Source: a virus
Taxonomy: Duplodnaviria > Heunggongvirae > Uroviricota > Caudoviricetes
Strand: one strand, 5' to 3'
IMG/VR virus record: IMGVR_UViG_3300032050_000049
Coordinates: 30,621 to 94,620 of that record
DNA length: 64,000 nt
Below the pieces are notes generated by a model. That model was given only the letters and a program-made list of their open reading frames with translations, made no database searches and was not told the DNA's origin. Shown here one piece after another: positions 9,327 to 61,897 of this stretch; the stretch's first letter is position 1, and each line of letters opens with the position of its first letter. The position numbers were made by a program, and so were the translations under genes.

Positions 9327-9329
9327 TTT

Positions 9330-10013
9330 ATGTACTATAGCCCACGAATAGTCACAAGCGGTTTGGTATTGGCACTAGATGCAGCTGAACGTCTTAGCTA
9401 TCCTCGCACAGGCACAACGTGGCGTGATTTAAGCGGTAATAGTAACAATGGCACATTAACCAATGGTCCTACTTTTAGCGCGGGTAATATGGGTAGTATA
9501 GTTTTCGATGGTGTGGATGATTATGTTAATATGGGCACAAGCACTTATTGTAATCTTATTAATATAAGTGTTTCTGTTTGGGTAAGAGTCACTAGTGCAA
9601 GTGGATATTTTTTGGGTAGATATAATAACATTACTGCTTTTAATGGGTTTATTATGTATTATGATGTAGCATCAACTAAATTTGGTGTTGGTGGTAGAGA
9701 ATCGAGCGCCACATATTTAAATAGTGCAACGATAAATACATATCCGTTAAATAACTGGTATAATTTTACCTGGACAAAATCCGCAAATGTTTGGTCGCTT
9801 TATGTTAATGGTTCTTTAGATGTATCATCTGCACTTGGAAATGGAACCACACCATATTCAAATAATACTATGTGGCTTGGCGCAAATAATGAAGGCGGTA
9901 CCCAATATTATTCCGGTGGAAATTTATCTAATGTTTTTATATACAACAGAACAATAACTGCCGTTGAAGTATTGCAAAATTATAACGCAACTAAAAGTAG
10001 ATTTGGTAGATAA
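9330..10013 (+). CDS. LamG/concanavalin A-like lectin-domain protein, tandem paralog 1
   Basis: 'LDAAE..SYP..GT.WRDLSGN.NNGTLTNGPTFS..N.GSIVFDG.DDY' and the C-terminal 'IYNR.ITA.E.LQNYNATK.RFG' signature. Confidence 0.7.
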   Translation: MYYSPRIVTSGLVLALDAAERLSYPRTGTTWRDLSGNSNNGTLTNGPTFSAGNMGSIVFDGVDDYVNMGTSTYCNLINISVSVWVRVTSASGYFLGRYNNITAFNGFIMYYDVASTKFGVGGRESSATYLNSATINTYPLNNWYNFTWTKSANVWSLYVNGSLDVSSALGNGTTPYSNNTMWLGANNEGGTQYYSGGNLSNVFIYNRTITAVEVLQNYNATKSRFGR

Positions 10014-19241: not shown

Positions 19242-19302
19242 AAAATAAAGTTTATATCATAACATTCTTTATATTTATAAACAGAAATCGTAATTTTATA
19301 AA

Positions 19303-20670
19303 ATGTCAACAGGAATAAACAACAATATTGATTGTAAATTGCAAGGCAAAGTTCGTGTTGTGGTTATGGAAAAAGACAAAATCATACACGACACTGGTGA
19401 AATAAAAAATATGATCACCAATCAAGGTATGGATGAAGTTGCAAATAGACCATTTGCTGAATTATTCGCTTGTTGTGCAATTGGAACTGGAACTGCTGAT
19501 ACTAAAAAAACCAATGTTCCCATAACTGGTTCCATAACATCAGGCAATGGTTTTGATATTAATTTAAGAGGCAGTGTTTCTCGTAGATCTGGATCATTGG
19601 TAACGTTTCCCAGAACAAGTGTAGCATTTCCTATATCAGGCAGTGTTATTAGAGCAAGTGATGTGGGTAATATCATTAAAATAAACAACGATAATACTTT
19701 TAGAATAAGAGCACAAACTGGTATTAATACAGCCAGAAGTTGTAGTGTATTAAATATGGATGGTACTGTACCAACAGGATCCTCAAGTGATAATAATTAT
19801 ACCATTTGGTTTACCAATCAAATTAGTATGTCAAATGAAACACAAAGATGTGGTAGAACATCAGATGGCAATAACTTTCCTGCTGCATCAGGTAGTTATG
19901 GTACAAATTGTAATAGTCAAATTTATAGCAGCGGTATAATTCACAGTCGTCAATTTAATTTTGCAACCGCATTGGTTGATGATACAAATACAATCACTGA
20001 AGTTGGATTGAGTTGGTTACCATTTTATAGAAGTCCAGCATTGTTTAGTAGAATTCGTTTGACCCAAGGCAGTGCTGGTAATGCGATACCTGCTGTATTG
20101 GCTGGACAAAACGTGGTGGTATTTTATTCACTAAACGTTGGTATGTCGCCTACCACAGCTACAACCGGTTCTGTTAATATAACTGGTAGCAATAAAGGTG
20201 GTAATTCACAAATGAATTTGTATGGATTAAGCAAAGTAAGTAGCAGTGGAGTAACAACTTATTTTGATGGTGGGTTACACGGCAATGAACCATATTATTT
20301 TAACCAAAGAAGTAAATACGGACTACCAGATACAGTTTTTAGACCACTGTATATATTTACATCCGCAACTGATACTGCAAGTCCTACGTGGGGTACAAAT
20401 ATAACTAGAAATAGTAGTTTTATTACCAAATCAATTGATAAAACACCTGTATATAGTAGAGTATATCCCACCAGCAGTTATGGTTATACATTAACCAAAG
20501 TGGCTACATTCAATGATACTGAATCTATCAATGCAACTTGGAACAGTTTTGGTGTGGGTGTACATACAGCCAGTAACTTGATGTCATTTGTATTTGGTGC
20601 TACTCAAAATAAACAAAATGGATATTTGTTAGCAATATCTCAATCGTTTACTTGGAATAGAATATTTTAA
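19303..20670 (+). CDS. Hypothetical structural protein (455 aa)
   Basis: Long ORF after a 61-bp AT-rich gap; S/T/N-rich. Confidence 0.55.
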   Translation: MSTGINNNIDCKLQGKVRVVVMEKDKIIHDTGEIKNMITNQGMDEVANRPFAELFACCAIGTGTADTKKTNVPITGSITSGNGFDINLRGSVSRRSGSLVTFPRTSVAFPISGSVIRASDVGNIIKINNDNTFRIRAQTGINTARSCSVLNMDGTVPTGSSSDNNYTIWFTNQISMSNETQRCGRTSDGNNFPAASGSYGTNCNSQIYSSGIIHSRQFNFATALVDDTNTITEVGLSWLPFYRSPALFSRIRLTQGSAGNAIPAVLAGQNVVVFYSLNVGMSPTTATTGSVNITGSNKGGNSQMNLYGLSKVSSSGVTTYFDGGLHGNEPYYFNQRSKYGLPDTVFRPLYIFTSATDTASPTWGTNITRNSSFITKSIDKTPVYSRVYPTSSYGYTLTKVATFNDTESINATWNSFGVGVHTASNLMSFVFGATQNKQNGYLLAISQSFTWNRIF

Positions 20671-20690
20671 TATTAATAGTTATAAGTTAT

Positions 20691-21869: not shown

Positions 21870-21881
21870 ATAATTATTTAT

Positions 21882-23006: not shown

Positions 23007-23019
23007 TATTTAATAATAT

Positions 23020-24054
23020 ATGGCAAATAAACGTATAACAGATTTAACCGAAGCAACTTTTGTAAGTGCGAGTAATTTTTATGTTGTGTATGATCCTACA
23101 GCTACACAAGATCAAAATGCTGATGGTTATACTGATTTTAATAAAAAAGTAAAACTAAAAAATATTTGTACCCAAGTAAGTCAATCAGCCATCACTTGGT
23201 TTGGTACAGGCGCAAATGGTGCTTTAAATACAACAGGTAGTGTTACTTTTACCACTACAAATGATCAAGAAGTATTTGTGAGAAATTATACATCTCTCAC
23301 AGTAAATGCTGGTCATACAATGACTGTAAGCAACAGATGTAGAGGATTGTTGATATATGTTGGGGGAGATTGTACTATAAATGGTACAGTAACAATGTCA
23401 GGCAAAGGAGCCAACTCGGTTGGAACAGCTGCTCATTATGTATATCAATCTAAAAATTACTATGGCAACTTTATTCCCCAATATCAATTTAACAGCGTAA
23501 AATTATATGGATCTGGTAGTGCCGGTGGACCCGCAAATACTGCTGGTAGATCCGCAGGCGAAGGTTATACAGGTGGTGGAGGCGGTGGAGGTGGAACTGG
23601 TGGTGCTGGTGCAGCAGGCACCAGTTGGAGTGGTGGATCAGGTGGAGGTGGTGGACCATCTGCAACTGCAGGCACTATAAATGGTGGTGCTGGTGGTAAT
23701 GGTACAGCTGCGAATACTGGTGGTGGTGCTGGTAATGGTGGTGGCAGTGCTGGTCCAGGTGGTATAGCTGGTGGTACTGGTACAGGTGGTTTGATTATTT
23801 TTGTGGTAAAAGGTACATTTACATTGGGAAATACAGGTGCAATAACTGCAAATGGTGTTGCGGGTGGAAATGGTAGTGCAGGAGGAGGAGGAGGTAGTGG
23901 AGGTGGAAGAATAGTTGTATTATACAATCAAAATTATATAAATAATGGTGGTACTATTACTGCAAATGGTGGAGCTGGTGGAGGAACTGCTCCAACTGCT
24001 GGTGGCAGTGGGGGAGCCGGTAGCATAACAATAAGAGAAATAGGAATTTGGTAA
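23020..24054 (+). CDS. Gly-rich solenoid-like paralog 3
   Basis: Same motif set (NRCRGLLIYVGGDCTING; GGGGSGGGRIVVLY). Confidence 0.7.
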   Translation: MANKRITDLTEATFVSASNFYVVYDPTATQDQNADGYTDFNKKVKLKNICTQVSQSAITWFGTGANGALNTTGSVTFTTTNDQEVFVRNYTSLTVNAGHTMTVSNRCRGLLIYVGGDCTINGTVTMSGKGANSVGTAAHYVYQSKNYYGNFIPQYQFNSVKLYGSGSAGGPANTAGRSAGEGYTGGGGGGGGTGGAGAAGTSWSGGSGGGGGPSATAGTINGGAGGNGTAANTGGGAGNGGGSAGPGGIAGGTGTGGLIIFVVKGTFTLGNTGAITANGVAGGNGSAGGGGGSGGGRIVVLYNQNYINNGGTITANGGAGGGTAPTAGGSGGAGSITIREIGIW

Positions 24055-24071
24055 AATATTTATAAAGTTAT

Positions 24072-25313
24072 ATGGCAATACCATCACAAGCAATATCTCA
24101 AATGACTACCTTGGTAGGTAGTAATCGTAACGACAATTGTTTATTTACATTGTATAATGCATTAATATCGTCCAGTGTCAATCAAAATTTAAAAGCAAGA
24201 ATAAGTACCCACGAACAATTTTATAGCAACAACAATACCGTCATAAATCAAGGTACTTATAATAATTACTTTGGAACAGGCAAAGATGGTAGTGTAACCA
24301 TAAGTAGCAGTGCGCAAATAAGTTCATCCACATCTCCAGCTGGATTAAATAATATTAGTCGTGAATTTGGCGACCCAGTTATAAAAAACTTTCAAAATTT
24401 AACCATCAACAGTGGTGTATTGTTCAGCCCATTAAGAGCTTGTAGAGGAATGATAATATATTGTACTGGCAATTTAACAGTAAACGGCACTTTGAGTATG
24501 ACTGGTAAAGGTGGAGGCGTTGGTTCTAAAGTCGCGTCTCCTATTGGATTTGCTACAAGCACCGATTCAAGATATGATTTGGTGGATGCTACATTATATT
24601 TTAACAATTTTTCATCAAGCACTGCAGGTGGAAGAGGAATACCTACACATTGGAATTGGGCGCCTAGTGGTAGTATTTGGTTTAATAATTATAAGATTAG
24701 AGTGCCATTGAGTGGGAGTGCTGCTGGAGGAGGACCAAATAATGGTGGTAGTGCGGGAATATTTTGTTGTGGAGGTGGAGGTGGGGGTGGTCAATCAAAC
24801 CCTGGCGCGGTAAGGGCAGGAGGATCCGGTGGTAGCGGAACTATATTTCTAGGAGGAGGGGGAGGAGGAGGAGGATCATACGGCGGCGGCGCCGGCACCA
24901 ACGGCATATTTGAAGCTGGTGGAATTGGCGGATTTGGGCCTAATCCAGGATTAGGCCCAAATGGTTCTGGCGGAGGTGGAGCTGGAACACCTGCTGGACC
25001 TGGCTCCGGAGGCGCTGGTAATACAGGCGTTGGTGGATTAATTATATTAATAGTACGTGGTAATATTACAATAAACGGCACAGTTTCTAGTGGTGGCGCA
25101 AATGGAGGTAATGGAACTACTGGAGGTGCTGGAGCTGCTGGCGGTGGCGGTGGAAGTGGCGGTGGTAGGATAATAATTATTTACGGCGGTACATATAGTA
25201 ATGTTGGTACCATTGTGGTTAATGGTGGCTCCGGCGGCGCCGGTGGCCCCGGCGCACTCACTGGTGGTGCTGGTGGTGCGGGTTCTATAACTATAAGAAG
25301 GGTAAATGTTTAA
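24072..25313 (+). CDS. Gly-rich solenoid-like paralog 4
   Basis: RACRGMIIYCTGNLTVNG; GGGGSGGGRIIIIYGG. Confidence 0.7.
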   Translation: MAIPSQAISQMTTLVGSNRNDNCLFTLYNALISSSVNQNLKARISTHEQFYSNNNTVINQGTYNNYFGTGKDGSVTISSSAQISSSTSPAGLNNISREFGDPVIKNFQNLTINSGVLFSPLRACRGMIIYCTGNLTVNGTLSMTGKGGGVGSKVASPIGFATSTDSRYDLVDATLYFNNFSSSTAGGRGIPTHWNWAPSGSIWFNNYKIRVPLSGSAAGGGPNNGGSAGIFCCGGGGGGGQSNPGAVRAGGSGGSGTIFLGGGGGGGGSYGGGAGTNGIFEAGGIGGFGPNPGLGPNGSGGGGAGTPAGPGSGGAGNTGVGGLIILIVRGNITINGTVSSGGANGGNGTTGGAGAAGGGGGSGGGRIIIIYGGTYSNVGTIVVNGGSGGAGGPGALTGGAGGAGSITIRRVNV

Positions 25314-25319
25314 AATTTT

Positions 25320-26543
25320 ATGGCTACACAAATATCAAGTTTAACAACACTAGTTAATGGCGTAAACAGTTATGATTGTTTTTTGCCATTGGTTGATCCA
25401 ACATTAGCATTAGATTCTCGTAATGTTAAAATTAGAATAAGTACCCACAATGAAATGTTCAGCAACAACTTTGCTGTAGCTAGTTTGAGCAGTTATGCAA
25501 ACTATTTTGGAACAGGCAAAGATGGTAGCTTAACCATAAGCAGCAGTGCTCAAGTAAGCGCTTCATTGAATAATATTAGTCGTGAATTTGGCGACCCAGT
25601 TATAAAAAACTTTCAAAATTTAACCATCGGCAGTGGTATATTATTTAGTCCACTAAGAGCTTGTAGAGGTATGATAATATATTGCACAGGCGATTTAACG
25701 GTGAATGGTACCATAAGTATGACTGGTAAAGGTGGAGGCGTTGGTTCTAAAGTCGCGTCTCCTATTGGATTTGCTACAAGCACCGATTCAAGATATGATT
25801 TGGTGGATGGCACATTATATTTCAATAATTTTTCATCAAGTACAGCGGGTGGTTATGGAATACCTACGCATTGGAATTGGGCGCCTAGTGGAAGTGTTTG
25901 GTTTAGGAATTATAAGATACGAGTGCCATTGAGCGGAAGTGTTGACGGTGGCAATGGTGCATCGACCGCTGCGGCTTCGGGTAATGCGGGATCAGCTGGT
26001 ATATTTAGTTGTGGTGGCGGCGGTGGTGGTGGTTCCGGAGAATCGCAGTATGGTACTTTTGGATCAGGAGCTTCTGGAGGCAGAGGAACTATATTTTCTG
26101 GTGGTGGCGGTGGAGGAGGCGGCGGCGGTGGATGTTGTGGTGGCAATGTACCTGGTACATCTGGTATTCTTGAAAGAGGAGGAGCAGGGGGAGCTTCTCC
26201 TAACGGCCCAGCGGGTGGAGGAGCGGGAACTACAACTACTGGTGGAAACGGTACATTAGGTGTTGGGGGATTATTAATATTAATTGTACGTGGAAATATA
26301 ATAATTAATGGAACTATTAGTTCAAATGGAGCTAGTGGTGGAAACGGAGTACGTATTAGTAAAGGATCTGGTGGAGGAGGTGGAAGTGGCGGTGGTCGAA
26401 TAATTATAACTTATGGCGGTACATACACTAATGCGGGTTCCGTTGTTGCAAATGGTGGATCAGGTGGTTCTGCCAGCTCTGGCGGTGGTCCAGGTGCGTC
26501 TGGTGGTGCTGGATCTATAACTACAAGAAAGATACATATATGA
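25320..26543 (+). CDS. Gly-rich solenoid-like paralog 5
   Basis: Close paralog of 24072..25313. Confidence 0.7.
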   Translation: MATQISSLTTLVNGVNSYDCFLPLVDPTLALDSRNVKIRISTHNEMFSNNFAVASLSSYANYFGTGKDGSLTISSSAQVSASLNNISREFGDPVIKNFQNLTIGSGILFSPLRACRGMIIYCTGDLTVNGTISMTGKGGGVGSKVASPIGFATSTDSRYDLVDGTLYFNNFSSSTAGGYGIPTHWNWAPSGSVWFRNYKIRVPLSGSVDGGNGASTAAASGNAGSAGIFSCGGGGGGGSGESQYGTFGSGASGGRGTIFSGGGGGGGGGGGCCGGNVPGTSGILERGGAGGASPNGPAGGGAGTTTTGGNGTLGVGGLLILIVRGNIIINGTISSNGASGGNGVRISKGSGGGGGSGGGRIIITYGGTYTNAGSVVANGGSGGSASSGGGPGASGGAGSITTRKIHI

Positions 26544-31417: not shown

Positions 31418-31605
31418 TTACTTACATTCTCTGGTCCATTTGATGTATGAATACCCAAATACTTTACCTTGGTCAAATCCATAGGCATCTTGATGCGTTT
31501 CCAATCCCATAGGGCTGGTAGATCACTATCATCAACAGCTTCCCATTCAATTTCCAATACAATTTTAGCAGATTTAGTTTTATTATTCATAACTTTCACG
31601 GTCAA
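31402..31605 (-). CDS. Hypothetical protein (67 aa)
   Basis: ORF. Confidence 0.4.
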   Translation of the reverse strand: MTVKVMNNKTKSAKIVLEIEWEAVDDSDLPALWDWKRIKMPMDLTKVKYLGIHTSNGPENVSNWMGN

Positions 31606-32680
31606 TGTTTGTCACATACGGAAATCTGGGCAGTTCATCACCAGGTGTAAGATTAAAATATTTCACCGTAGCACTCTTTCCAATAAGTTTATTTTTATTC
31701 TTCAAGAGTTCTTTTAGATATTCCCGAGTGCCTTTGATATTACTATGGAACTCAATTCCCTTATGATTCTTGAATACCATATATCCAGCCATACCACTCT
31801 TGTTGCCTATTCCTTCAACAATATCAAGAATTTTGAATTCACTATCTTGAAATTCTTTACGCTTGAGTAGGTATTTACTGCGCTTGTTTTCATATGGCCC
31901 ATCGGTACGAACCATCTGACCTTCGTAACCTTCGTCAATGTACTTTTCATACAACTCATTCAAATGTGTAATCGTGTCCACAAGGTGAGTCGGAACACGA
32001 CGAACCACATTGTTATTAACAAGATAAGTAGTAATGTCAGCATTACGATCACTAAAAGTCTTCTGTACAATCCAGTCATATACCCAATATTGAATATTCT
32101 TTGCACTCTCAGTCAAATCTTCTGGTGTAGGTTTGGTCTTCTTTACCAAACTACAAATAGCATTAAAATCATTGGCAAACTTATCCGCATACAACTCACC
32201 ATCAAGAATTGCATTTGGGAATTTAACAAAGAAATCCTTCAATGCTACCAATACGTGAGGAGCTGAAACAATAGGTTTACCATTACGACTCCACATACCA
32301 TCTTTCTTTACAACACAACGAATGCCATCCAACTTGGGTTGACTATAAACAGGATACTTCAAATCATCCTTATAATCGTCATAGTTCTTTGCCAACATTG
32401 GCTCAGTAAAACTAACTCCATCAATATCCGTGATTTTTTCAAAGTAACCACTTTCTTTCTTTTTCTTCCAAGTGGCTTTGGCTTCTTTTACAGCTTGATC
32501 TTCATTGGAAGTAGCATTCTTTTTGCCGGTATTTTTACCAACACAAAGAGTCCATTCTGTAATTTGAATAGCCCCATCAAGCTGACCATAATGGGTACGA
32601 TACTTGTTGCCATCAACTTCGATGGTCCAAGTTTGAATAGCACCCGTATTTGTACGGGCGAATAACATAGGTAGTTTCAT
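31583..32680 (-). CDS. ATP-dependent DNA ligase (small, T7- or Chlorella-virus-sized)
   Basis: Motif I 'KLDGIRCV' (KxDG). 365 aa with adenylation and OB-fold layout. Confidence 0.75.
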   Translation of the reverse strand: MKLPMLFARTNTGAIQTWTIEVDGNKYRTHYGQLDGAIQITEWTLCVGKNTGKKNATSNEDQAVKEAKATWKKKKESGYFEKITDIDGVSFTEPMLAKNYDDYKDDLKYPVYSQPKLDGIRCVVKKDGMWSRNGKPIVSAPHVLVALKDFFVKFPNAILDGELYADKFANDFNAICSLVKKTKPTPEDLTESAKNIQYWVYDWIVQKTFSDRNADITTYLVNNNVVRRVPTHLVDTITHLNELYEKYIDEGYEGQMVRTDGPYENKRSKYLLKRKEFQDSEFKILDIVEGIGNKSGMAGYMVFKNHKGIEFHSNIKGTREYLKELLKNKNKLIGKSATVKYFNLTPGDELPRFPYVTNIDRESYE

Positions 32681-35086: not shown

Positions 35087-35794
35087 ATGGAAAACCTTTA
35101 TGTTGAAAAAATACACAATTCGATTGCCAAAGAATTGATTGTTAAACATCATTATACACACAAGTGGACCATAGCCGAGTTGTGTATCGGAATTTACGAC
35201 AAAAGCAAACGTAGTGTATTTTTTGACGTTCCTACGCTGGTTGGCGCAGTTGTATTTGGACCCACTGCTGGCGCAAATGTGGCTAGAAGTGTGTCTCCAC
35301 TATTAAATCATTCCAATTTATGGGAATTGAAACGATTGTGGGTAGCAGATGAATTGGGTAAAAATACTGAAAGTTGGGTTATTGGTCAATGTTTGAAATA
35401 TATCAAACAACATCACAGTGAAATAAAGTGTTTGATCAGTTATGCTGATCCTGATGCTGGACACATTGGTACCATATATCAAGCTACCAATTGGCTGTAT
35501 CAAGATATTGAAAGACGCAAAGGCACTAGTGGTTATATTGTTAGTTTTGACGGTGGTATTAAATGGCAACACTCACGTACATTATTCAACAAATATGGAA
35601 CATTCAACTATAATAAATTGGTGGAAGTGTTACCCAGACCATTTAAGATCAAAGAATTATCAGTTAAAGAACGATATATTTATCCTTTGGGAAGCAAAGT
35701 GGAAAAGAAAAATCTGATTAAAAGTTTGAATTATCCCATTATAGAATATCCCAAACTCAAATCAGATAAAGAAACTGTAGTGGAATTTAATTAA
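35087..35794 (+). CDS. Hypothetical protein on the opposite strand within the minus block; weak GNAT/Mom-like resemblance (speculative)
   Basis: 'KHHYTHKW', 'WELKRLWVADELGKN'; orientation anomaly. Confidence 0.55.
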   Translation: MENLYVEKIHNSIAKELIVKHHYTHKWTIAELCIGIYDKSKRSVFFDVPTLVGAVVFGPTAGANVARSVSPLLNHSNLWELKRLWVADELGKNTESWVIGQCLKYIKQHHSEIKCLISYADPDAGHIGTIYQATNWLYQDIERRKGTSGYIVSFDGGIKWQHSRTLFNKYGTFNYNKLVEVLPRPFKIKELSVKERYIYPLGSKVEKKNLIKSLNYPIIEYPKLKSDKETVVEFN

Positions 35795-44170: not shown

Positions 44171-45262
44171 TTAGTTCTTTAAGACTTGGAACATCAACTT
44201 CTTATATTCTTCCTTACCTAATGGACGATTATCCAAGAGTTTAAATACAAAAGCAGCTCTGTTTGTTTCACCATAAGATGAAATAACCAGTTGTGCTTGT
44301 TCTTTTCTGGTAGGCAATGAACGAAGTCTGTTATTCACAAAACTATTCATACCATCCACAATCTTGTTTACTTCCTTCTTACCATCCGCAATACGGCTAA
44401 TAGTACCTTTAATTTGTTCTGCTAACTCGAAATCAAAGGTGGTAAAGATATAGTTATAAAAAGTGTTGTAGTCAGGCATACCCTGTTCCAACCACACATC
44501 CATAATTTTTTCCAGTGAACTAAGTTCAGACTTTAGATGATGTAACAGGAGATATTTAGATGCTTTAATCTTATGAATAGTCTGATCATTCTTACTATAT
44601 AAGCATACGCCTTCTTTATCTTGCCACTTATCTACAATCTGTAACATATCAGTTATATCAGTAAAAGTATAGATTTCCGGACGAAGTAAATCATACTTCT
44701 TAGCCATAGCATCCAACATATCTTGTTGTGCAAGTGAATAGTTGATATGATTAATAAAACCAATCAACTTCCACATAGGTTCATCGCCATACGATAACAC
44801 AATTTTATTGATTGGAGACAGCCATTCCCAAATGATAGAATAACCCCAAGTATCATTGTTATCCTGTAACTTACTTAGAATAGTTGACTTGAACAATTCT
44901 AACTCAAAACCATTAGCCATAGTAGAAGCATCAACAGTTCCACGGGTTCGTAGAATATATTGACCCTTATACTTGCTAACAATCAAAGTGCTACCGTCCA
45001 ACTTTTCAACAACAGTGCAATGCTTCAATGAAGCAGGAACAGGAAAGTGTTCAGGATTCTCCCCATAGTTAGTAAACTTCGGAAATGATGCACTAATAAC
45101 TTCACCCTCATAATTCACAACCACACTACGCATGTGCTTGTTGTCTTGCGTCCACTTAGTGCCAATATTTTGGGGTTGAATCAAATGGACAATTTCACCG
45201 AAAGCGTGGAAATGGTGCACCATAAATTGAGTGCGGTCAACCTTATCTATGTCAATTTTCAT
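44171..45262 (-). CDS. RNA ligase, T4 Rnl1-like
   Basis: Motif I 'VVEKLDGSTL'. N-terminal 'NYEGE...PKF.N.GENPE' parallels T4 RnlA 'FEMDGEKP...EKFFNLNENP'. Confidence 0.7.
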   Translation of the reverse strand: MKIDIDKVDRTQFMVHHFHAFGEIVHLIQPQNIGTKWTQDNKHMRSVVVNYEGEVISASFPKFTNYGENPEHFPVPASLKHCTVVEKLDGSTLIVSKYKGQYILRTRGTVDASTMANGFELELFKSTILSKLQDNNDTWGYSIIWEWLSPINKIVLSYGDEPMWKLIGFINHINYSLAQQDMLDAMAKKYDLLRPEIYTFTDITDMLQIVDKWQDKEGVCLYSKNDQTIHKIKASKYLLLHHLKSELSSLEKIMDVWLEQGMPDYNTFYNYIFTTFDFELAEQIKGTISRIADGKKEVNKIVDGMNSFVNNRLRSLPTRKEQAQLVISSYGETNRAAFVFKLLDNRPLGKEEYKKLMFQVLKN

Positions 45263-49360: not shown

Positions 49361-50140
49361 TTACAGATCGCTATAGTTCTTCAGTTCAATCTTACCATTT
49401 AGTATGGTAATATACTGACTAAGATTACAATCAATACAAATGTTGTTTGCATCAACGATATTAGCAAATCCTTCTCTATGATATTGTGCGGCTTTACCAG
49501 TTCGCCATTGATTTGTATGACCCACAATTTGTCTCAACTCTTCAATGGGTTGAAACTCTTCGTTAAAATCACACCAAACAATACCACCACATTTGTTTCT
49601 ACCACCCCTTGCATATCCAGCGCCATAAAACCAATGTGGTTCATTGATCTTTAGTTTGGTTCTAGCATCATTATCACTTTGATCCAGATACTTGAAGATA
49701 ACTTCATTTGTGGCACAAATTGGAGGTAACAAACGTTTATCCAATCCAGCGTGGGTTAATAGAATATCATCTACAACAATCGACCAGTGAAACTTATCTT
49801 GTATATCACCTCTGACCTTGCCAATAACGTTATCAATTGCATCATACTTCCATTGTTCATAACCACTACACCAAGATGTAGAAGCATTAAACAGATAGTG
49901 TATATCGTGATTACCAAATAGAGTATAGTTCTTTGGGTTAGGAAGAAATACATCTCTTAGATATTTGGCTGTAGCAACATAGTCAGTAACATCATCCAAA
50001 TTGAAACTATCAAACCAATCACCCAAACAAATGTTGATATCGCCATCTTCTTTGGTAAAGATGGTATCCAACTTTGTGTAATGATTATGTGGATCAGCAG
50101 CAATTACAATCTTTTGTTTATTGGAACTAAACTTTAGCAT
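49361..50140 (-). CDS. Calcineurin-like metallophosphoesterase (Ser/Thr-phosphatase-like)
   Basis: 'AADPHNHY', 'GDWFDSF', 'GNHD'. Confidence 0.65.
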   Translation of the reverse strand: MLKFSSNKQKIVIAADPHNHYTKLDTIFTKEDGDINICLGDWFDSFNLDDVTDYVATAKYLRDVFLPNPKNYTLFGNHDIHYLFNASTSWCSGYEQWKYDAIDNVIGKVRGDIQDKFHWSIVVDDILLTHAGLDKRLLPPICATNEVIFKYLDQSDNDARTKLKINEPHWFYGAGYARGGRNKCGGIVWCDFNEEFQPIEELRQIVGHTNQWRTGKAAQYHREGFANIVDANNICIDCNLSQYITILNGKIELKNYSDL

Positions 50141-52563: not shown

Positions 52564-53244
52564 ATGAAAATAATATCTGGAATTTATAAACTCACATCAC
52601 CGTCCGGAAAATGTTATATTGGTCAAAGTAAAAATATATATCAAAGATTTCGTGATCACAAAAGAGCTAATAAACATAAACATTGCAAGTTATATGTTGC
52701 AATTAAAAAATACGGATACGAAAATTTTAAAAAAGAAATAATAGAAGAATGTAACAAAGAAATTTTAGATAAAAAAGAACAATATTGGATTAAATATCAC
52801 AACTCCGTTGATAACGGATATAATTGTGATTATGGTGGACAAATTCATAAAGAATTTGGAAAAGAACATAGAGAAAAATTACGTGCAGCATTTTTAGGAA
52901 AGTATAATGGCAACCAAAATATTGAATTTTACATAGATAACATTTTGTATAAATCAATTGGTGATGCTAGTAAAAAATTAAATATACCCCCTAAAACGAT
53001 ATATAATAGGTTAAATTCTAAAAACATAGAATTTGATAATTATAAATATAAAGATGTAAATTTAATACCAACCAGAAGTATTAGAAAATACGCATCACAA
53101 CCTTTTATTATTGATGGTATAAAATATACCACTATAAAAGAAGCGTCTGAAGTATTAAATATACCATCATCAATATTGAGAAGAAAATTAAAATCTGGTA
53201 AATTGTCAAATTCATCATATATTACACCGCAACATCCGCTTTAA
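52564..53244 (+). CDS. GIY-YIG homing endonuclease (I-TevI-like, free-standing)
   Basis: 'GIYKLTSPSGKCYIGQSKNIYQRFRDHK' GIY-YIG core plus NUMOD-like basic C-terminal repeats. Orientation opposite to neighbours. 3' end overlaps the thyA 3' end. Confidence 0.8.
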   Translation: MKIISGIYKLTSPSGKCYIGQSKNIYQRFRDHKRANKHKHCKLYVAIKKYGYENFKKEIIEECNKEILDKKEQYWIKYHNSVDNGYNCDYGGQIHKEFGKEHREKLRAAFLGKYNGNQNIEFYIDNILYKSIGDASKKLNIPPKTIYNRLNSKNIEFDNYKYKDVNLIPTRSIRKYASQPFIIDGIKYTTIKEASEVLNIPSSILRRKLKSGKLSNSSYITPQHPL

Positions 53245-54373
53245 TTGTTGGGTGTGATTGATAATCTATTAACTTAATATCATCATATTTAAAATCAAAT
53301 AATGATTTTATTTCAGGATTCAACCACAATTTTGGTAACTTCATTGGTTCTCTTGACATTTGTAGTTTAATTTGATCCAAATGGTTCGTATACAAATGTG
53401 CGTCACCGATTGAGTATGTCAATGTACCAGTAGCCATATTGCTTACATGCGACATCATTGCTACCATCAGTGCATATGATGCTATATTAAATGGCTTCCC
53501 AAGAAAAATATCATTTGATCTGATTGTCATCATTAAATTCAAACGACGGGTTGGAATATTAGCGTCATTTAATACTTTTTCATTCATTTCAGGCACAGAT
53601 ACCCATCCTTTATTTCCTCCTGATTTTCTGTATAAATCAAATCGTTCTTCCAGTGTCAATTCTTCTGTATTAAAAATTAGAAAACAATGACAGGGCGGTA
53701 AGGCGCAATGATCTACCCAATGTGGATGCCATGCTGATACGATCATACGACGATCATCTGGATTGGTTTTTAGCTTGTCAATTACTTTTTGTAGTTGATC
53801 TATTCTACCAAAAAACCACGATTCGGCATAATCACCTTTTGTTCCACTCACAGTACCTTTGGGACAAGTGCTTGCATCATTATCATTCACGGTGGTATAA
53901 AACGGAAAATTTCTCCACATTCCGCCATACGTTCCTTCACCTAATTCACCCCATAAAAGTGCAAAATTTGGGTCATCTTTAATTTCTTGAATGAAACGCT
54001 CTTGAGTCCAAGAAGACCGCCACCGATTCCCACCCAAATCGCCATACGGATTTGCTTCATAGGTTTCTTCAGGATGAGATTTGCAAAAATCAATATAGCG
54101 TTTATATGCCCACTCATTCCAGATTCTAACGTTATTGTCAACCAGATACTTGATATTTGTATCACCACTAATGAACCACAGCAATTCGTGAACAATAGCT
54201 GGCCAATGAACTTTCTTTGTGGTTAATAGAGGAAATGCATTTAGATCCACATTGTATTTGGCTTGAGCACCAAAAATGCCAATGGTATCTACCCCAGTTC
54301 TGTTCTTTTTAAGTTTTCCGTTTGTCAAAATATCATTGACAATTCTGAAATATTCTGTGTCTACTTTGTTCAT
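53222..54373 (-). CDS. thyA: Thymidylate synthase (ThyA, long form with two insertions)
   Basis: 'RTGVDTIGIFG', 'DDRRMIVSAWHP', catalytic 'PPCHCFLIFN', 'FNIASYALMVAMMSHV', 'GDAHLYTNH'. Confidence 0.85.
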   Translation of the reverse strand: MNKVDTEYFRIVNDILTNGKLKKNRTGVDTIGIFGAQAKYNVDLNAFPLLTTKKVHWPAIVHELLWFISGDTNIKYLVDNNVRIWNEWAYKRYIDFCKSHPEETYEANPYGDLGGNRWRSSWTQERFIQEIKDDPNFALLWGELGEGTYGGMWRNFPFYTTVNDNDASTCPKGTVSGTKGDYAESWFFGRIDQLQKVIDKLKTNPDDRRMIVSAWHPHWVDHCALPPCHCFLIFNTEELTLEERFDLYRKSGGNKGWVSVPEMNEKVLNDANIPTRRLNLMMTIRSNDIFLGKPFNIASYALMVAMMSHVSNMATGTLTYSIGDAHLYTNHLDQIKLQMSREPMKLPKLWLNPEIKSLFDFKYDDIKLIDYQSHPTIKADVAV

Positions 54374-54411
54374 ATTATTTAGTATACATTATAACTTTGT
54401 GTAGGTCAAAT
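54371..54411 (-). promoter_or_regulatory. Internal promoter TTGACC-17-TATACT for thyA, inside the DHFR 3' end
   Basis: ATTTGACC TACACAAAGTTATAATG TATACT AAATAAT ATG. Confidence 0.5.
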
Positions 54412-54866
54412 TCTTTTACAACTTCTTTATGTGTAAACGTATGTTCAAACTCAGGCATAAATGTATCACCATCATAATTACCATTTATATGCGTAACATA
54501 GAACTCCTTAATGTATGGTAACAACTTAATATAAGTTTTAGCACCACCAGCAACAATCAAATAGTCTTTTCTAAATTGACTATATGATTCAAAATCTGTC
54601 ATTGTAATCAGTTGACCAGTCATAGAGTTATTGTTTACCAGATATTGATTTGGATTTGCAGCCATTATTTTGTCTTCTTTGACTAGTACAAGACATTCTC
54701 TATTTTTTAGAAGTGGTAGTGTATCAAATGTATTTTTACCTACCACAATAGTATTACCAACGGTAAATTCTTTAAAGTGCTTAAAATCCTCTTTTATAGA
54801 TGGCCAGGGTAATCCACCATTTTTGCCTATAACCCTATTTTGTGCCATTGCAAGTATTGCTTTCAT
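54375..54866 (-). CDS. folA: Dihydrofolate reductase
   Basis: 'ILAMAQNRVIGKNGGLPWP...DFKHFKE.T.GNTIVVGKNTFDTLP'. Stop directly abuts the thyA start, in frd-td order as in T4. Confidence 0.85.
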   Translation of the reverse strand: MKAILAMAQNRVIGKNGGLPWPSIKEDFKHFKEFTVGNTIVVGKNTFDTLPLLKNRECLVLVKEDKIMAANPNQYLVNNNSMTGQLITMTDFESYSQFRKDYLIVAGGAKTYIKLLPYIKEFYVTHINGNYDGDTFMPEFEHTFTHKEVVKEFDLHKVIMYTK

Positions 54867-55300
54867 TGTATATAATTTAAAATTAGTTTGATTGATTGTT
54901 CAATAGAATTTTTATCGGTGTCAATATCAAGATAGTTATTTAATGGCGGTTCATAATAATCCACCATCTTACCCTCCCTTAATCTGTTACTATGTAGATA
55001 TACTTCTTTTACAATATGTGTAGAATCATTTTTTAATGAGTCTCTTAAATTTCTGAACGGAGATACTAACGACATTATTGTGTAATTATATAATTTGTTG
55101 CTAGTTTTTGCCATTTCTATAGCTAATCTCACATTACTTTTTCTGCCACTAATACTATAGTCTTTATTGTTACTAATACTACGTAACGTATCCCCATCAA
55201 TAGTTACAGCTGTACGATTTGTTTTTGTTAAAAGTGTTTCTAATGTTAACGCCAATGTGGTTTTACCACTATTTGGTTGACCTGTTAATATAATAATCAT
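54863..55300 (-). CDS. cysC: Adenylylsulfate (APS) kinase-like P-loop kinase
   Basis: 'LTGQPNSGKTTLA' and 'IDGDTLR...NKD..S...R..NVR...E.AK...SLVSPFRNLRD' parallel the CysC 'LDGDNVRHGLNKDLGFS..DR.ENIRR..EVAK...SFISPYR.DRD'. Confidence 0.65.
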   Translation of the reverse strand: MIIILTGQPNSGKTTLALTLETLLTKTNRTAVTIDGDTLRSISNNKDYSISGRKSNVRLAIEMAKTSNKLYNYTIMSLVSPFRNLRDSLKNDSTHIVKEVYLHSNRLREGKMVDYYEPPLNNYLDIDTDKNSIEQSIKLILNYIQ

Positions 55301-56690: not shown

Positions 56691-56923
56691 AGTATGATCT
56701 TTTCCTTCTCAAAATATTCAGTAACTTCATCATTCCAAGGCTTGTTGATGTCATCTAACTTATTAGCAATAGAACGCATTATATGTGACGGCCAGCAACC
56801 ATCATTACTTGGCCAGAAATAATAATAACCATCAACATCCATAATAAGTTCACCAACTAAATGATTATTCGGAGTCAGTACGTGGAACTTCTGGTTGTTG
56901 ATCTGTTTGTAAATTAGATTCAT
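56687..56923 (-). CDS. Hypothetical protein (78 aa)
   Basis: ORF. Confidence 0.35.
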   Translation of the reverse strand: MNLIYKQINNQKFHVLTPNNHLVGELIMDVDGYYYFWPSNDGCWPSHIMRSIANKLDDINKPWNDEVTEYFEKEKIIL

Positions 56924-57365
56924 TTTTTTCTAAAACAATATTTGTAGTACCCTCGTAATTTACCCCACCAATAACATTAATAATAAATTTGTTGGTGATG
57001 GTTCCCTCCAAGTTACTAGTAACAATATAACTCTCTTGTACGCTTCCGTCAAGAAAAAACACAATTTTGGTAGAACTTGATTCAAGTATCTTCAAGTCAT
57101 TTGTAACAGCATCCATCAAATAAACATCATCAAATGAACTATACATATTATAGTTTTCATCAAACGTAAGTTCAAACTCACGTTGTTGAAATGCTGCTTG
57201 ATGTTTGAGATTAATCAATAGTGTCTTTAAGTTTTCTCTAGCTTCAAAATATCTATTGTTACCAACTAGACTATCATAGTTGATAACAATTGCACCAATA
57301 ATACCAAGCAATATGGTTATGGCTAATACTAACTCTATTAGTGTAAATGCTTTATTGTTTTTCAC
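56865..57365 (-). CDS. Type IV pilin/pseudopilin-like protein
   Basis: N-terminal 'MKNNKA|FTLIELVLAITILLGIIGAIV' (prepilin-like leader, Glu at +5, hydrophobic helix). Position -1 is Ala rather than Gly. Confidence 0.5.
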   Translation of the reverse strand: MKNNKAFTLIELVLAITILLGIIGAIVINYDSLVGNNRYFEARENLKTLLINLKHQAAFQQREFELTFDENYNMYSSFDDVYLMDAVTNDLKILESSSTKIVFFLDGSVQESYIVTSNLEGTITNKFIINVIGGVNYEGTTNIVLEKNESNLQTDQQPEVPRTDSE

Positions 57366-57609
57366 GAATTAGTTTTAATTTTTGTTGACGGGTCAATTGT
57401 TTGATTTGATACTCCCTCTTCATTGCTTCACTTTTACTATTAAAACATTCGGTATATACTAATCTAACTGGTAATCGTGTCTTAGTATATTTAGCACCAC
57501 ACCCTCTAGAATGATCACTAACTCGTTTTTCAACATTATTAGAGTAACCACAATAGAGGGTGTTGTCCCCACAAATAACTATATAGCAACAATGATTCTT
57601 AACTATCAC
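57352..57609 (-). CDS. GIY-YIG nuclease-family small protein (YhbQ/UPF0213-like)
   Basis: 'YIVICGDNTLYCGYSNNVEKRVSDH...EYQIKQLTRQQKLKLI' matches the YhbQ pattern. Confidence 0.7.
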   Translation of the reverse strand: MIVKNHCCYIVICGDNTLYCGYSNNVEKRVSDHSRGCGAKYTKTRLPVRLVYTECFNSKSEAMKREYQIKQLTRQQKLKLIREKQ

Positions 57610-58380: not shown

Positions 58381-59406
58381 TCAACGTATATAATAAAGAA
58401 CACGTTGCAAAACATATTGATAGGTATCAAACCATTTTTTATTACCCAACTGATATTTTGGTATCTTACTCAAGTCAATTGATTCACTATAAATTGCATA
58501 TGAACTTAAATAAGCATCATTACAATTGGCGTGTTGTTCATAATGATTAGGCATTGGTATCATCAACAATGGTTTGTTTTGATATATAGCTTCAGCACTT
58601 GTTTCAAATCCACCACTACATACTACTGCCTTACATACCTTCATCTTTTCTTGAAATAGTTTACCATCAAGATTAAATAATTTTAAATTTGGTAGTTCAT
58701 CATATTGTTTGGTTAATTTGGTAAAACAATGAATATTGATATCTGGATATTTTTTTGCTTGATTAATCAATTGCGGTAACATATCTTCATTCATTAGATA
58801 TACCAACACAAAGTCTTCTTGTTTGTGTGATACACTATAACTTTCACTTCTTAATATTGGAGGACTTGCAATCATAACATCATCATTAAATTCATAATAA
58901 CTTAATGCTACGATTTTGGATCTGATACTAGTGATTTTGTTTATGATATTTAAAAATAACTTTTGTACAGGATATCCATTGATTCGTGGATATATAATAG
59001 AATCCATTGCGTATTGATGTCCAAAGCTTACATACTTTATGTTTTTAAAGAATAATGCGGTTAGACCTACCAGTGGTTCATAATAGTTGAATATAGCATC
59101 TGGTTTTTCTTTTTGGATGATGCTACAGATTTTAATGAATGATACAATTAAGCGTGGTAATTCAAATGTGTTGTTCAATATGGTTTTCCAGATAACAACT
59201 CTACCTACACTATCAAATACAAAATCAAATCCATCATAGTCTACTACGTTAAATTCGTCTGTAAAATATTTAGATAACCCCCGTTTCTTTTTAGCTGCAA
59301 AAGCAGTTGTTACCTCAATGCCTTGCGATTGTAGATATTGTTTGGTTGCTATAGCTTGTGTAATGTGTCCATTACCTTCAGTTTGAACTCCGAATAATAT
59401 CTTCAT
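58381..59406 (-). CDS. GT28-family glycosyltransferase (UgtP/MGDG-synthase-like diacylglycerol glycosyltransferase)
   Basis: N-terminal 'QTEGNGHITQAIATKQYL' against UgtP 'ANYGNGHVQVAKTLYEQ'. C-terminal GT-B motif 'VCSGGFETSAEAIYQNKPLLMIPMPNHYEQHANCN'. Confidence 0.65.
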   Translation of the reverse strand: MKILFGVQTEGNGHITQAIATKQYLQSQGIEVTTAFAAKKKRGLSKYFTDEFNVVDYDGFDFVFDSVGRVVIWKTILNNTFELPRLIVSFIKICSIIQKEKPDAIFNYYEPLVGLTALFFKNIKYVSFGHQYAMDSIIYPRINGYPVQKLFLNIINKITSIRSKIVALSYYEFNDDVMIASPPILRSESYSVSHKQEDFVLVYLMNEDMLPQLINQAKKYPDINIHCFTKLTKQYDELPNLKLFNLDGKLFQEKMKVCKAVVCSGGFETSAEAIYQNKPLLMIPMPNHYEQHANCNDAYLSSYAIYSESIDLSKIPKYQLGNKKWFDTYQYVLQRVLYYIR

Positions 59407-60113
59407 AATTTGATTAGTTTTATGTCACCTTCTAATGTCTCAATTATATACGATGTATTTTCTCCAACAATAAAACTACCACAATTGTAATAGTTTATAC
59501 CATCAATAATGGTACATTCTGGTTTGTGTATATGACCGCATAAAATACTATCGTGTCCACTATTTTTACAATAGTGTACAACGGTAGCTTCATAATTGCC
59601 TATGTACTTAACTGCTTCTTTTGCTTTTTGTTTGAGAAAGTTACTGAAGCTAAATTTGAATATTCTAAATAGTTTATTTACCGACAAACTATAATCGTAT
59701 ATTACTGAACCAATATGTTGTATCCACTTATTTTTGGTTACTAATCCATCAAATTGATCTCCGTGAATAATTAATATTCTTTCGTTTTTTAATGTGGTAT
59801 GAGTGATTTCTCTTACAACTTGTATATTATCGCCAAAGTATATGTCATTGAATGGTTCGATAAAGTCATCGTGGTTACCCCAAATATAATATACTTTGGT
59901 TCCTTTACGACTCATACGCAATATTTTTTGCAATATTGTGTTATAATTGCTATGCCACTTAAACTTTCTACTCAATAACCAACCATCAATAAAATCACCT
60001 ACAATATACAAATATTCACATTCAACTTCACTTAATAGTTTCAATAATTTTTCGTGGTTACAAAAATCACTACCTATATGACAATCACTTATAAATAATG
60101 TGCGTACTTTCAT
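59403..60113 (-). CDS. LpxH-family metallophosphoesterase (UDP-2,3-diacylglucosamine hydrolase-like)
   Basis: Collinear LpxH motifs 'TLFISDCHIG', 'YIVGDFIDGW', 'YIWGNHDDF', 'LIIHGDQFDG', 'LCGHIHKP'. Confidence 0.7.
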   Translation of the reverse strand: MKVRTLFISDCHIGSDFCNHEKLLKLLSEVECEYLYIVGDFIDGWLLSRKFKWHSNYNTILQKILRMSRKGTKVYYIWGNHDDFIEPFNDIYFGDNIQVVREITHTTLKNERILIIHGDQFDGLVTKNKWIQHIGSVIYDYSLSVNKLFRIFKFSFSNFLKQKAKEAVKYIGNYEATVVHYCKNSGHDSILCGHIHKPECTIIDGINYYNCGSFIVGENTSYIIETLEGDIKLIKL

Positions 60114-60144: not shown

Positions 60145-60546
60145 CTAGTTACGATTTTTTCGGAACTGGCAATCGGTCATCCAGCAATCGCAATGGATAC
60201 ATTCTCCATTGTGGTCTGGTTTGCATGGCAATTGAAAGATATTACCAATCACTTCTAAATTTTCTGAAAGTAAATTACAAAATGGAATGCTTTCTTTACC
60301 ATTTTCAGTAATAGCCCATCCAAAGTCTTTTGATACAACTTCAGCAGCATATCTTACATCATACTTATCGTAAGTTGCTTTATTATAAATAATATCCCCT
60401 TGGTAAATTTCTTTACCATTTTTATCTTTTAAGCCGGTAAACCATTGAATAGTTCTACCTTGTTTCTTAAATTCTTCATATGGATAACAAGTAATTGGAG
60501 ATTCATCCCAACAATTGTATTTTTCGTCCCAAGCTCTGTATTTCAT
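60145..60546 (-). CDS. YopX-domain protein
   Basis: 'MKYRAWD...FTGLKDKNGKEIYQGDII...VIGNIFQ'. Confidence 0.65.
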   Translation of the reverse strand: MKYRAWDEKYNCWDESPITCYPYEEFKKQGRTIQWFTGLKDKNGKEIYQGDIIYNKATYDKYDVRYAAEVVSKDFGWAITENGKESIPFCNLLSENLEVIGNIFQLPCKPDHNGECIHCDCWMTDCQFRKNRN

Positions 60547-60547
60547 A

Positions 60548-60883
60548 TTATTTCTTTGTTTTCTTTAATGTTTGATGAATATTACCCACAACAAGTAGAT
60601 CTTCATCAAACATTGCTAGAGGAAATTCATCTAAATACCACCCATAACTATCCCAGATTACATTACTATAATGGTTTTTACGCCCAAACTTTTGTCTGAC
60701 GATATCACCTTCGAAGATTCTAGTGCCTTTGATATCATTTAGTCCAGTATATTCTTCAATGATGGTTTCATTGCGATTAAAGCATTGTGCTAGATGTGCA
60801 GTACCTTCACAACCATAAAGAGAACCAGTCATAGTGTACTTGTTTTCTTTGATGTTAAAGATTCTGTAAATGAATTGTCTCAT
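60548..60883 (-). CDS. YopX-domain protein
   Basis: 'YTGLNDIKGTRIFEGDIV...VVGNIHQ'. Confidence 0.6.
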   Translation of the reverse strand: MRQFIYRIFNIKENKYTMTGSLYGCEGTAHLAQCFNRNETIIEEYTGLNDIKGTRIFEGDIVRQKFGRKNHYSNVIWDSYGWYLDEFPLAMFDEDLLVVGNIHQTLKKTKK

Positions 60884-61254
60884 AGTAGTTTTAGATGTTT
60901 AGTGACTGGATCTATAATGGAACTATAATTAGGTCCAATAGATATACAAGTGATAGTAGGTTCATCAAACAAGTCATTTTCTTGAATATAATAAACTTTT
61001 AGTCCAATAGCAACAGCTTGATGTCCAATATCAAGCAATTCTTTTTCATCCTTTGCTGCTAAACAAACCTTATAGAAGGTTCCGTTAATCCATTGTTCTT
61101 CACACTTATAGAATGGAATAATATCGTCGGGATATGCTCTGACTAGATTGGTTAAGAAAGCAATACTTGCGTGAGCACCTTGAACAACCATTTGTCCTTT
61201 GCTCAATTTTATATCCTTACGAAACACAATAACTTGTTTTACTTTATCGTTCAT
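60880..61254 (-). CDS. Peptidyl-tRNA hydrolase, PTH2 family
   Basis: 'KQVIVFRKDIKLSKGQMVVQGAHAS' against PTH2 '[25 protein letters not shown]'; 'ISIGPN...IDPVTKHLKLL' against 'LGIGPG..DLIDKVTGHLKLY'. Confidence 0.75.
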   Translation of the reverse strand: MNDKVKQVIVFRKDIKLSKGQMVVQGAHASIAFLTNLVRAYPDDIIPFYKCEEQWINGTFYKVCLAAKDEKELLDIGHQAVAIGLKVYYIQENDLFDEPTITCISIGPNYSSIIDPVTKHLKLL

Positions 61255-61453
61255 TTTTTACTTTAATTGGATATAACCAAAATTCGTTATTACACACTTC
61301 ACATTTGGCTTTTGACATTCTGGTATGATCGTTTGGGTCACTTACAATATTAACCAATTCACCTTCAAGTGCTTCAAATTTGGAACTGCAATTATAACAA
61401 TCACCAACCCACACTCTTTGTTCTGGAGGAGTGCCTCGTTTGATACATTTCAT
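61244..61453 (-). CDS. Zinc-ribbon small protein
   Basis: CYNC...CEVC. Confidence 0.4.
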   Translation of the reverse strand: MKCIKRGTPPEQRVWVGDCYNCSSKFEALEGELVNIVSDPNDHTRMSKAKCEVCNNEFWLYPIKVKNER

Positions 61454-61456
61454 ATA

Positions 61457-61897
61457 TTAGTGTCCTTTACTATTATCAATTTTGACGGGAGCAGTTAGTA
61501 TTTCTTTATTTTTGTTATAATTGCCTAGATACTTGTATTCACGTTGAACAAATTGTAGAACACCACCGGTTCGTTCATATACCATAAAGCCAAAGTGTTC
61601 ATATACGACTCTACCAATGGTAGTTTTGATACCTAGAGGTAGTTCAACGATATCACCCTCATATAGATATTCACCGTTTGTGGCTTTAAAGCCGGTACAC
61701 AGTTCAATTTTATAAGCTTCTTGGTCTACATCACATTTTGATGCATCGTCTTGATTAGTACCAATAGATGTTACAAAGTCAACAAGATTACCATTAGGGT
61801 CTAGGTAATAGTTTGATGTGCAATGTAGTGATGAACCGGGATATTCAGGTTCGTGAGTATAACATTCAGCATTTTTGCTCCAGATACGATATTTCAT
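61457..61897 (-). CDS. YopX-domain protein
   Basis: 'MKYRIW...CTGFKATNGEYLYEGDIV'. Confidence 0.6.
   Translation of the reverse strand: MKYRIWSKNAECYTHEPEYPGSSLHCTSNYYLDPNGNLVDFVTSIGTNQDDASKCDVDQEAYKIELCTGFKATNGEYLYEGDIVELPLGIKTTIGRVVYEHFGFMVYERTGGVLQFVQREYKYLGNYNKNKEILTAPVKIDNSKGH

Follow-up and report, generated by a model that had tools for sequence, protein, structure and literature searches.

Does a family assignment tell us what a small phage protein does when residues that are nearly invariant in the family have been replaced? This question is raised by one gene in a stretch of 64,000 nucleotides (nt) of tailed-phage DNA (Caudoviricetes; positions 30,621 to 94,620 of IMG/VR record IMGVR_UViG_3300032050_000049), the whole of which we call the window:

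60880..61254, minus strand: gene of the peptidyl-tRNA hydrolase 2 (PTH2) family, 'Glu-type' variant, 124 amino acids (aa); basis: open reading frame (ORF) list, Pfam PTH2, PHROG 1866, AlphaFold2 model and Foldseek

This gene encodes a genuine PTH2-fold protein and is under purifying selection, and in its active site a nearly invariant Lys and a nearly invariant Asp are replaced by Gln21 and Glu92. With a probability of about one half, we consider that the protein would still be a hydrolase of a tRNA ester (N-blocked aminoacyl- or peptidyl-tRNA), working with a remodelled site based on Glu92.

An earlier note on this DNA had recognized the ORF, without giving its strand, and had assigned the protein to PTH2 over the whole 124 aa. 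The ORF starts with ATG and lies on the minus strand, the plus-strand frame of the same interval containing many stop codons, and all three peptide strings quoted in that note are present in the minus-strand translation. The Pfam profile search recommended there was run and bears out the assignment: PF01981 PTH2 matches at 86.1 bits (gathering cut-off 23; E 2.5e-24), with residues 5-124 aligned to the entire profile (positions 1-115 of 115), so that the protein is a full-length member above the cut-off. PTH2 was the sole Pfam family at E <= 0.01, and the Pth1 profile was unmatched. When all PDB sequences were searched with phmmer, seven Pth2 chains matched at E 7e-14 to 5e-9 (2ZV3, 1RZW/3ERJ, 1WN2, 1XTY, human Bit1 1Q7S, 24BT and 1RLK), and the protein also matches PHROG 1866. 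The AlphaFold2 model, a monomer predicted with a 40-sequence alignment as input, is compact and confident (pLDDT 96.3, pTM 0.89), has the alpha/beta fold of PTH2/Bit1 with a four-stranded sheet and four helices, and displays no new surface feature. Foldseek against the PDB at E <= 1e-3 gave Pth2 structures exclusively, with TM 0.76-0.84 for the best chains and 0.70-0.84 over the crystal structures of Pth2. The gene is real and no chance ORF, because it has 589 homologues at E <= 1e-5, because pairwise dN/dS (nonsynonymous to synonymous rate ratio) against two diverged relatives is 0.29-0.49, and because the exact protein recurs in metagenomes, with 42 blocks of the collection indexing it and 23 contigs read. 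A near-identical member of its cluster was found on a 105-kb contig.

The active site was read with S. solfataricus Pth2 (Sso, 1XTY) as the numbering reference, and conservation was counted in two sets: 145 diverse PTH2 representatives, taken from the 2,279 hits (E <= 1e-3) that HMMER gave when 1.84 billion cluster representatives were scanned exhaustively, and a clade of 121 sequences consisting of the window protein and its 120 closest homologues (61-98% identity). In the alignment to 1XTY, K18 faces Gln21, D86 faces Glu92, and the G-x-T part of the loop is gapped. The residues concerned are encoded at two places:

61192..61200, minus strand: codons of K19-G20-Q21, the 'K-G-K' motif of canonical Pth2 with its second Lys changed to Gln (alignment to 1XTY)
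60958..60984, minus strand: remodelled catalytic loop Q91-E92-N93-D94-L95-F96-D97-E98-P99, which replaces the canonical 'D-x-G-x-T-(E/Q)-(F/L)-x-(G)-x-P'

The counts at the four positions are the following:

Sso K18: K in 143/145 representatives; clade Q 61, R 30 and K 29 of 121; window Gln21
Sso D86: D in 143/145 representatives; clade Glu in 121/121; window Glu92
Sso G88: G in 140/145 representatives; clade deleted in 121/121; deleted in the window protein
Sso T90: T in 141/145 representatives; clade T 46, D 30, G 24 and M 16; window Asp94

The window protein lacks the invariant Lys of the K-G-K motif as well as the Asp, Gly and Thr of the D-x-G-x-T loop, the swap of Asp for Glu being conservative in that an acidic group is kept. 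Throughout the clade the catalytic loop is two to three residues shorter than the canonical loop, and Glu92 is followed by T, N or C at position 93. Position 21 is occupied by Q, R or K in 120/121 sequences, all of them long polar hydrogen-bond donors, and the nearby Lys19, which corresponds to the less conserved Sso K16, is invariant in the clade (120/121). The family-wide pocket invariants R12, D14, G20, Q25, H28, T100, T102, G107 and P108 are kept; among these, D14, Q25, H28, T100, T102, G107 and P108, the counterparts of Sso D11, Q22, H25, T96, T98 and G103-P104, are invariant or nearly so. The earlier note had said that missing equivalents of the catalytic Lys, Asp and Ser would speak against its proposal, and this objection applies in part: Lys is changed to Gln21 and Asp to Glu92, the Gly is deleted and the Thr is left without a conserved counterpart, and the other pocket invariants stand. 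Since near-invariant active-site residues are replaced, enzymatic activity of the window protein cannot be assumed from family membership.

The Glu-type clade of the window protein, which is metagenome-only, was monophyletic in 99 of 100 neighbour-joining bootstraps and makes up a single cluster at 50% identity, the bit score dropping from 238 to about 100 for all other sequences. Among the 145 representatives only two are without the Lys, P0146 (Q) and P0238 (R), and the same two are the only ones without the Asp, both having Glu. A dedicated search around P0146 revealed a lineage of five members (P0146 and P0283-P0286), down to 53% identity, and the matches that came after this lineage were canonical, with K/D/G/T in 111/118. 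Like the window clade, the P0146 lineage has Glu in place of Asp (5/5), its loop is shortened ('IEES.L.-----G'), and its Lys position is filled by Q, E or K; unlike the window clade, it has an even larger loop deletion, and its identity to the window protein is about 44%. Either it arose independently, or its kinship to the window clade is very deep. Because the P0146 and P0238 lineages fail to group with the window clade, the combination of the D-to-E change, the short loop and the relaxed Lys probably arose more than once; the neighbour-joining trees rest on a protein of 124 residues and are hence weak. A single origin of all Glu-type sequences was unsupported by the same trees (16/100 bootstraps for P0146, and 7/100).

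The overall pattern looks like constrained remodelling rather than erosion, because dN/dS is below one half, an acidic residue is present in every sequence of the clade, few residues are admitted at positions 21 and 93, the losses of Lys and Asp are coupled, and a second lineage exists. It is plausible that the longer side chain introduced by the change from Asp to Glu and the shorter loop compensate each other geometrically; a long acidic side chain, a short loop and a Lys no longer needed look like a coherent alternative arrangement.

The rarity of phage Pth2 that the earlier note implied did not hold up. By tblastn we found full-length Pth2 homologues with 29-43% identity in at least 33 phage records, most of them annotated 'peptidyl-tRNA hydrolase', including the mycobacteriophages Myrna, Baka, Sandalphon, Phabba and WXIN, and jumbo phages and others such as RsoM2USA, XacN1, Xoo-sp13, Atu_ph07, SCTP-2 and the phiM12 group; a viral structure library adds Pth2 in RaK2, VH7D, CcrBL9, several giant viruses and fowlpox virus. 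Such proteins have also been discussed in print, in 2013, when RaK2 ORF188 was named Pth2 (PMC3622015), and in 2021, when Iyer et al. treated the PTH2 of jumbo phages as a component of ribosome rescue in a context of tRNA repair and RNA ligases, and as being of the archaeo-eukaryotic type, not the Pth1 type of the host (PMC7824862). Among the viral genes enriched at the peak of one bloom, a virome study of Lake Erie lists PTH2 as the most abundant (PMC12542629). The remark of the earlier note that bacteria normally use the unrelated Pth1 agrees with the literature (PMC7824862, PMC3488237); bacterial Pth1 (PF01195) catalyses the same reaction as Pth2 enzymes (PMC3488237, PMC11994314) with an unrelated fold and other catalytic residues (His20, Asp93 and Asn10 in E. 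coli).

Phage Pth2 is thus already known, and it is the Glu-type, loop-shortened variant that appears to be undescribed in the literature searched. The Pth2 proteins of cultured phages (Myrna gp36, WXIN and Baka; Ralstonia RsoM2USA; Agrobacterium Atu_ph07; the Sinorhizobium phiM12 group) and of the huge phage LR756511 share family and fold with the window protein at 30-43% identity over the full length, have in common with it the motifs 'KQVIV.R.DL', 'AQGAHAS', 'W..G.F.K.C', 'F...PT.TC..IGPDY' and 'HLKLL', and are likewise small stand-alone proteins in large phages. However, 8/8 other phage Pth2 proteins, including that of LR756511, keep K-G-K and D-x-G-x-T-E/V-F/Y…P-T, whereas K-G-[QRK] and E-[TN]-x-x-F-x-x-P-T, the latter three residues shorter, stand at these places in the window clade; the substitutions are therefore specific to the window clade. 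In cluster C mycobacteriophages Pth2 lies inside tRNA arrays (PMC5966550), unlike the window gene, which has no tRNA nearby, and a comparable tRNA-array context is ruled out here because neither tRNA nor tmRNA genes were found in the window or in the relatives L001, L004 and L005. With the solved Pth2 structures (S. solfataricus 1XTY, M. jannaschii 2ZV3, A. fulgidus 1RZW/3ERJ, P. horikoshii 1WN2 and human PTRH2/Bit1 1Q7S) the window model shares the fold at TM 0.76-0.84, rmsd 2.3-3.3 A and 29-38% identity, and the equivalents of D14, Q25, H28, T100/T102 and G107-P108 are conserved. It differs from them in having Gln for K18 and Glu for D86, in the deletion of G88 and the absence of T90, and in an extra insertion of about eight residues after helix 1. 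Pth2 acts as a homodimer (PMC11994314).

The genes directly around PTH2 are all on the minus strand:

60145..60546, minus strand: second YopX-family gene downstream (Pfam YopX 50.4 bits)
60548..60883, minus strand: YopX-family gene downstream of PTH2 (Pfam YopX PF09643 37.9 bits)
61244..61453, minus strand: ORF of 69 aa with two CxxC pairs, zinc-ribbon-like (PHROG 2834, E 1.5e-5)
61457..61897, minus strand: third, diverged YopX-family gene, upstream (Pfam YopX 22.5 bits; PHROG 98, E 7e-12)

All three flanking genes pass the PF09643 gathering cut-off of 22.4, the third marginally and with PHROG 98 in support, so the YopX flanks described in the earlier note are real; no function of YopX is reported in the literature searched, and the name serves as an annotation label only. 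The PTH2 stop overlaps the ATG of the YopX gene at 60548..60883 in a shared ATGA, and the 69-aa ORF overlaps the PTH2 start by 11 nt. Because these reading frames overlap, it is suggested that the 69-aa ORF, PTH2 and YopX are co-translated. In diverged relatives the gene order is kept (YopX, 69-aa ORF, PTH2, YopX, (YopX), metallophosphoesterase, glycosyltransferase … kinase, DHFR, ThyA), and it is identical on a 39-kb JGI contig with the exact window protein. A YopX gene stands at the position equivalent to 60548..60883 in L001, L004, L015 and L020; the 69-aa ORF stands directly upstream of PTH2 in L004-L006, L015 and L017-L020, and both of its CxxC pairs are invariant where it was translated (L004, L005, L015-L017 and L020). 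The zinc-ribbon-like protein is possibly a partner of the PTH2 protein.

Several minor observations concern this locus. Some unrelated PTH2 proteins (P0126, P0150, P0123 and phiM19) carry N-terminal CxxC..CxxC extensions; the 69-aa ORF looked alike, but a kinship to such extensions is unsupported by sequence similarity, the BLASTP matches being not significant (E 0.63 and 12). In L001 a 291-aa GIY-YIG gene (9133-10008) lies directly upstream of PTH2 in place of the 69-aa ORF, and the L001 PTH2 as called starts 10 residues later; the window has a free-standing GIY-YIG ORF of 85 aa at 57352-57609 (minus strand), and homing-endonuclease traffic is thus seen around the locus. The contig L016 encodes a 592-aa ankyrin-repeat protein (4540-6318) a few kb downstream of an identical PTH2 protein, and its gene order after PTH2 differs from that of the window, which indicates mosaicism among these phages. 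Two relatives encode known anti-defence proteins, Acb3 (anti-CBASS) and Tad3 (anti-Thoeris), at L001 855-1559 and L004 4933-5424; these genes belong to the small-gene block that includes PTH2 and lie 5-9 kb upstream of it, and the corresponding part of the source phage is beyond the window end.

We infer that the window protein retains hydrolysis of a tRNA ester, and the way in which it would work can be outlined as follows. The target would be the ester bond at the 3' end of an N-blocked aminoacyl- or peptidyl-tRNA, Glu92 would serve as the general base, and K19, Q21 and N93 may act as ligands of the substrate or of the oxyanion. Expression would occur together with the overlapping zinc-ribbon ORF and YopX, as part of a small-gene block that is probably early, and the job might be the recycling of tRNA trapped as peptidyl-tRNA while translation is disturbed in infection. 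This reading is favoured by the profile and fold, the pocket invariants, the invariant Glu, the second lineage, the dN/dS values, and the synteny with overlapping frames. A role in tRNA recycling would fit, by analogy, the precedent of lambda, whose infection depends on host Pth according to a reference as cited in PMC12542629, and the tRNA-repair context described by Iyer et al. (PMC7824862). The window also encodes two RNA ligases, in agreement with the context that Iyer et al. give for phage PTH2 (PMC7824862):

38046..39098, minus strand: DraRnl/DRB0094-type RNA ligase with PHA02142 OB domain (TIGR02306 192 bits; cut-off 151)
44171..45262, minus strand: weak T4 Rnl1-like RNA ligase (Pfam 42.6 bits; NCBIfam 58 against 242)

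A clear polynucleotide kinase-phosphatase was not recognized beside them in the window, though two metallophosphoesterases and an APS-kinase/KTI12-like P-loop kinase are encoded there. The earlier note had suggested that the protein could rescue ribosomes or counter host toxins that block aminoacyl-tRNAs, of which the idea against acetylating toxins is a biological sub-case of the hydrolase reading; given the altered active-site residues, canonical activity and these roles are less well supported by the window copy than they would be by an ordinary phage Pth2.

Several points weigh against retained tRNA-ester hydrolysis. The protein stays below the cut-offs of both Pth2 equivalog models (NCBIfam NF003314, 85.8 against 126; TIGR00283, 76.4 against 82), three or four nearly invariant PTH2 positions are changed in the clade, and the loop of the window copy (E-N-D-L-F) has neither Ser nor Thr. 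In S. solfataricus Pth2, K18, D86 and T90 are reportedly the catalytic residues; our operative test was the family-wide conservation computed here, and the counts are independent of that assignment. A dN/dS of 0.3-0.5 means moderate constraint only, the window and the three relatives named above have no tRNA or tmRNA gene, and no experimental assay of any phage Pth2 was found in the literature searched.

How far do other explanations account for the same data? That the protein is an ordinary Pth2 with the usual catalytic residues would be in keeping with the strong Pfam and PDB sequence matches, with the fold, and with source databases that label close homologues 'PTH2 family peptidyl-tRNA hydrolase'; this is nevertheless highly improbable, as it is contradicted at the sequence level by the missed equivalog cut-offs and by Q, E, a deletion and D at K18, D86, G88 and T90, where K, D, G and T stand in 143, 143, 140 and 141 of 145 representatives and in 8/8 phage Pth2 proteins. 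A different case is a changed substrate, in which the pocket would hydrolyse another ester or amide, such as an unblocked or mis-acylated aminoacyl-tRNA, or a group that a toxin or defence enzyme of the host has added at the tRNA 3' end, the protein being then a specialised counter-defence or tRNA-repair enzyme. The alteration is systematic, clade-wide, recurrent and placed exactly on the catalytic loop with the rest of the pocket kept, as is typical of specificity shifts; the score below the equivalog cut-offs, the two RNA ligases in the genome, and Acb3 and Tad3 a few kb upstream in relatives within the same small-gene block also agree with it. The anti-defence proximity, however, is loose (5-9 kb) and seen in two relatives only. 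Besides, countering TacT-type toxins needs no remodelling, because their product, N-acetyl-aminoacyl-tRNA, is already a canonical Pth substrate (PMC9241777), and we regard a changed substrate as somewhat unlikely.

If instead catalysis has been lost, the binding target might be the acceptor end of tRNA, the ribosome or a host factor, which the protein would sequester or shield, or for which it would act as a decoy, possibly with the zinc-ribbon protein. A Lys and a Thr that are invariant elsewhere are dispensable here, the loop is shortened and in the window copy without a hydroxyl residue, purifying selection is moderate only, and a small CxxC..CxxC ORF is tightly coupled upstream; all of this is as such a pseudoenzyme would have it. 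It would not be expected of a pure binder, however, that the Glu is invariant in 121/121 clade members and 5/5 of the second lineage, or that all other pocket invariants are retained, and the compact, confident model has no new surface feature; loss of catalysis is in our opinion unlikely. A broader and still less likely proposal unites these two cases: the Glu-type PTH2 would be neofunctionalised, either with a new tRNA-3'-end substrate or as a dead tRNA or ribosome binder, and would, maybe with the co-translated zinc-ribbon protein, neutralise a host defence or toxin that targets tRNA. If this is true, the repeated emergence of the Glu-type PTH2 in different phage lineages would point to a so far undescribed class of counter-defence factors that evolved from a translation-rescue enzyme.

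What the locus means depends in part on these alternatives. The clade is abundant in metagenomes, as is seen from its 589 homologues and from the occurrence of the exact protein in 42 blocks, and it shows that the supposedly invariant catalytic constellation of PTH2 can be exchanged as a whole, which probably happened two or more times. Should the Glu-type proteins be active, as the hydrolase reading holds, they provide an alternative Pth2 active site, and what is understood of the mechanism of a universal enzyme of translation rescue would be refined; should they lack activity or act on a new substrate, all members of the clade are wrongly named by the automatic annotation 'peptidyl-tRNA hydrolase', and phage and host may interact at the tRNA 3' end in a new way. 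As a practical lesson, the PTH2 family label alone should not be taken as function here.

The source of the window is a large uncultured phage; that it is a phage, as the earlier note had it, is confirmed by PHROG matches for tail-fibre and baseplate-like genes in the first 18 kb of the window (1-18 kb). Its G+C content is about 31-43% per 4-kb interval, the coding strand switches near 28 kb, and the minus-strand block at 29-64 kb contains, besides several GIY-YIG homing endonucleases and many small ORFs, the following genes:

31583..32680, minus strand: ATP-dependent DNA ligase
49361..50140 and 59403..60113, minus strand: two metallophosphoesterases
53222..54373, minus strand: ThyA
54375..54866, minus strand: DHFR
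54863..55300, minus strand: small P-loop kinase of 145 aa, APS-kinase/KTI12-like
58381..59406, minus strand: glycosyltransferase

The closest match of the DNA ligase is in the 595-kb uncultured 'huge phage' LR756511, at 48% identity. Megablast of the window at 58-64 kb gave no match in 50,697 phage records, and no Rfam family reaches its gathering score in the window. Downstream of the tail-fibre genes, five large ORFs scanned at 17874-26543 on the plus strand (374-455 aa) have no PHROG match at 1e-5, and the structural ORF 19303..20670 has no tblastn match in the 50,697 phage genomes, which places the structural module very distant from cultured phages.

Some further genes of the window deserve mention. 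ThyA has 383 aa but covers all 266 positions of the Pfam profile, so that an insertion of about 100 aa in frame is implied; the ThyA of the relative L001 has 287 aa. An I-TevI-like GIY-YIG endonuclease at 52564-53244 (plus strand) overlaps the ThyA 3' end on the opposite strand, and no group I intron reaches the Rfam gathering score. An ORF of 166 aa at 56865-57365 (minus strand) carries a type IV pilin N-terminal methylation motif (PF07963, 24 bits), which is unusual for a phage gene. A Mom-family protein encoded at 35087-35794 (plus strand; PF25680, 150.6 bits) suggests hypermodification of the phage DNA of the Mu Mom type.

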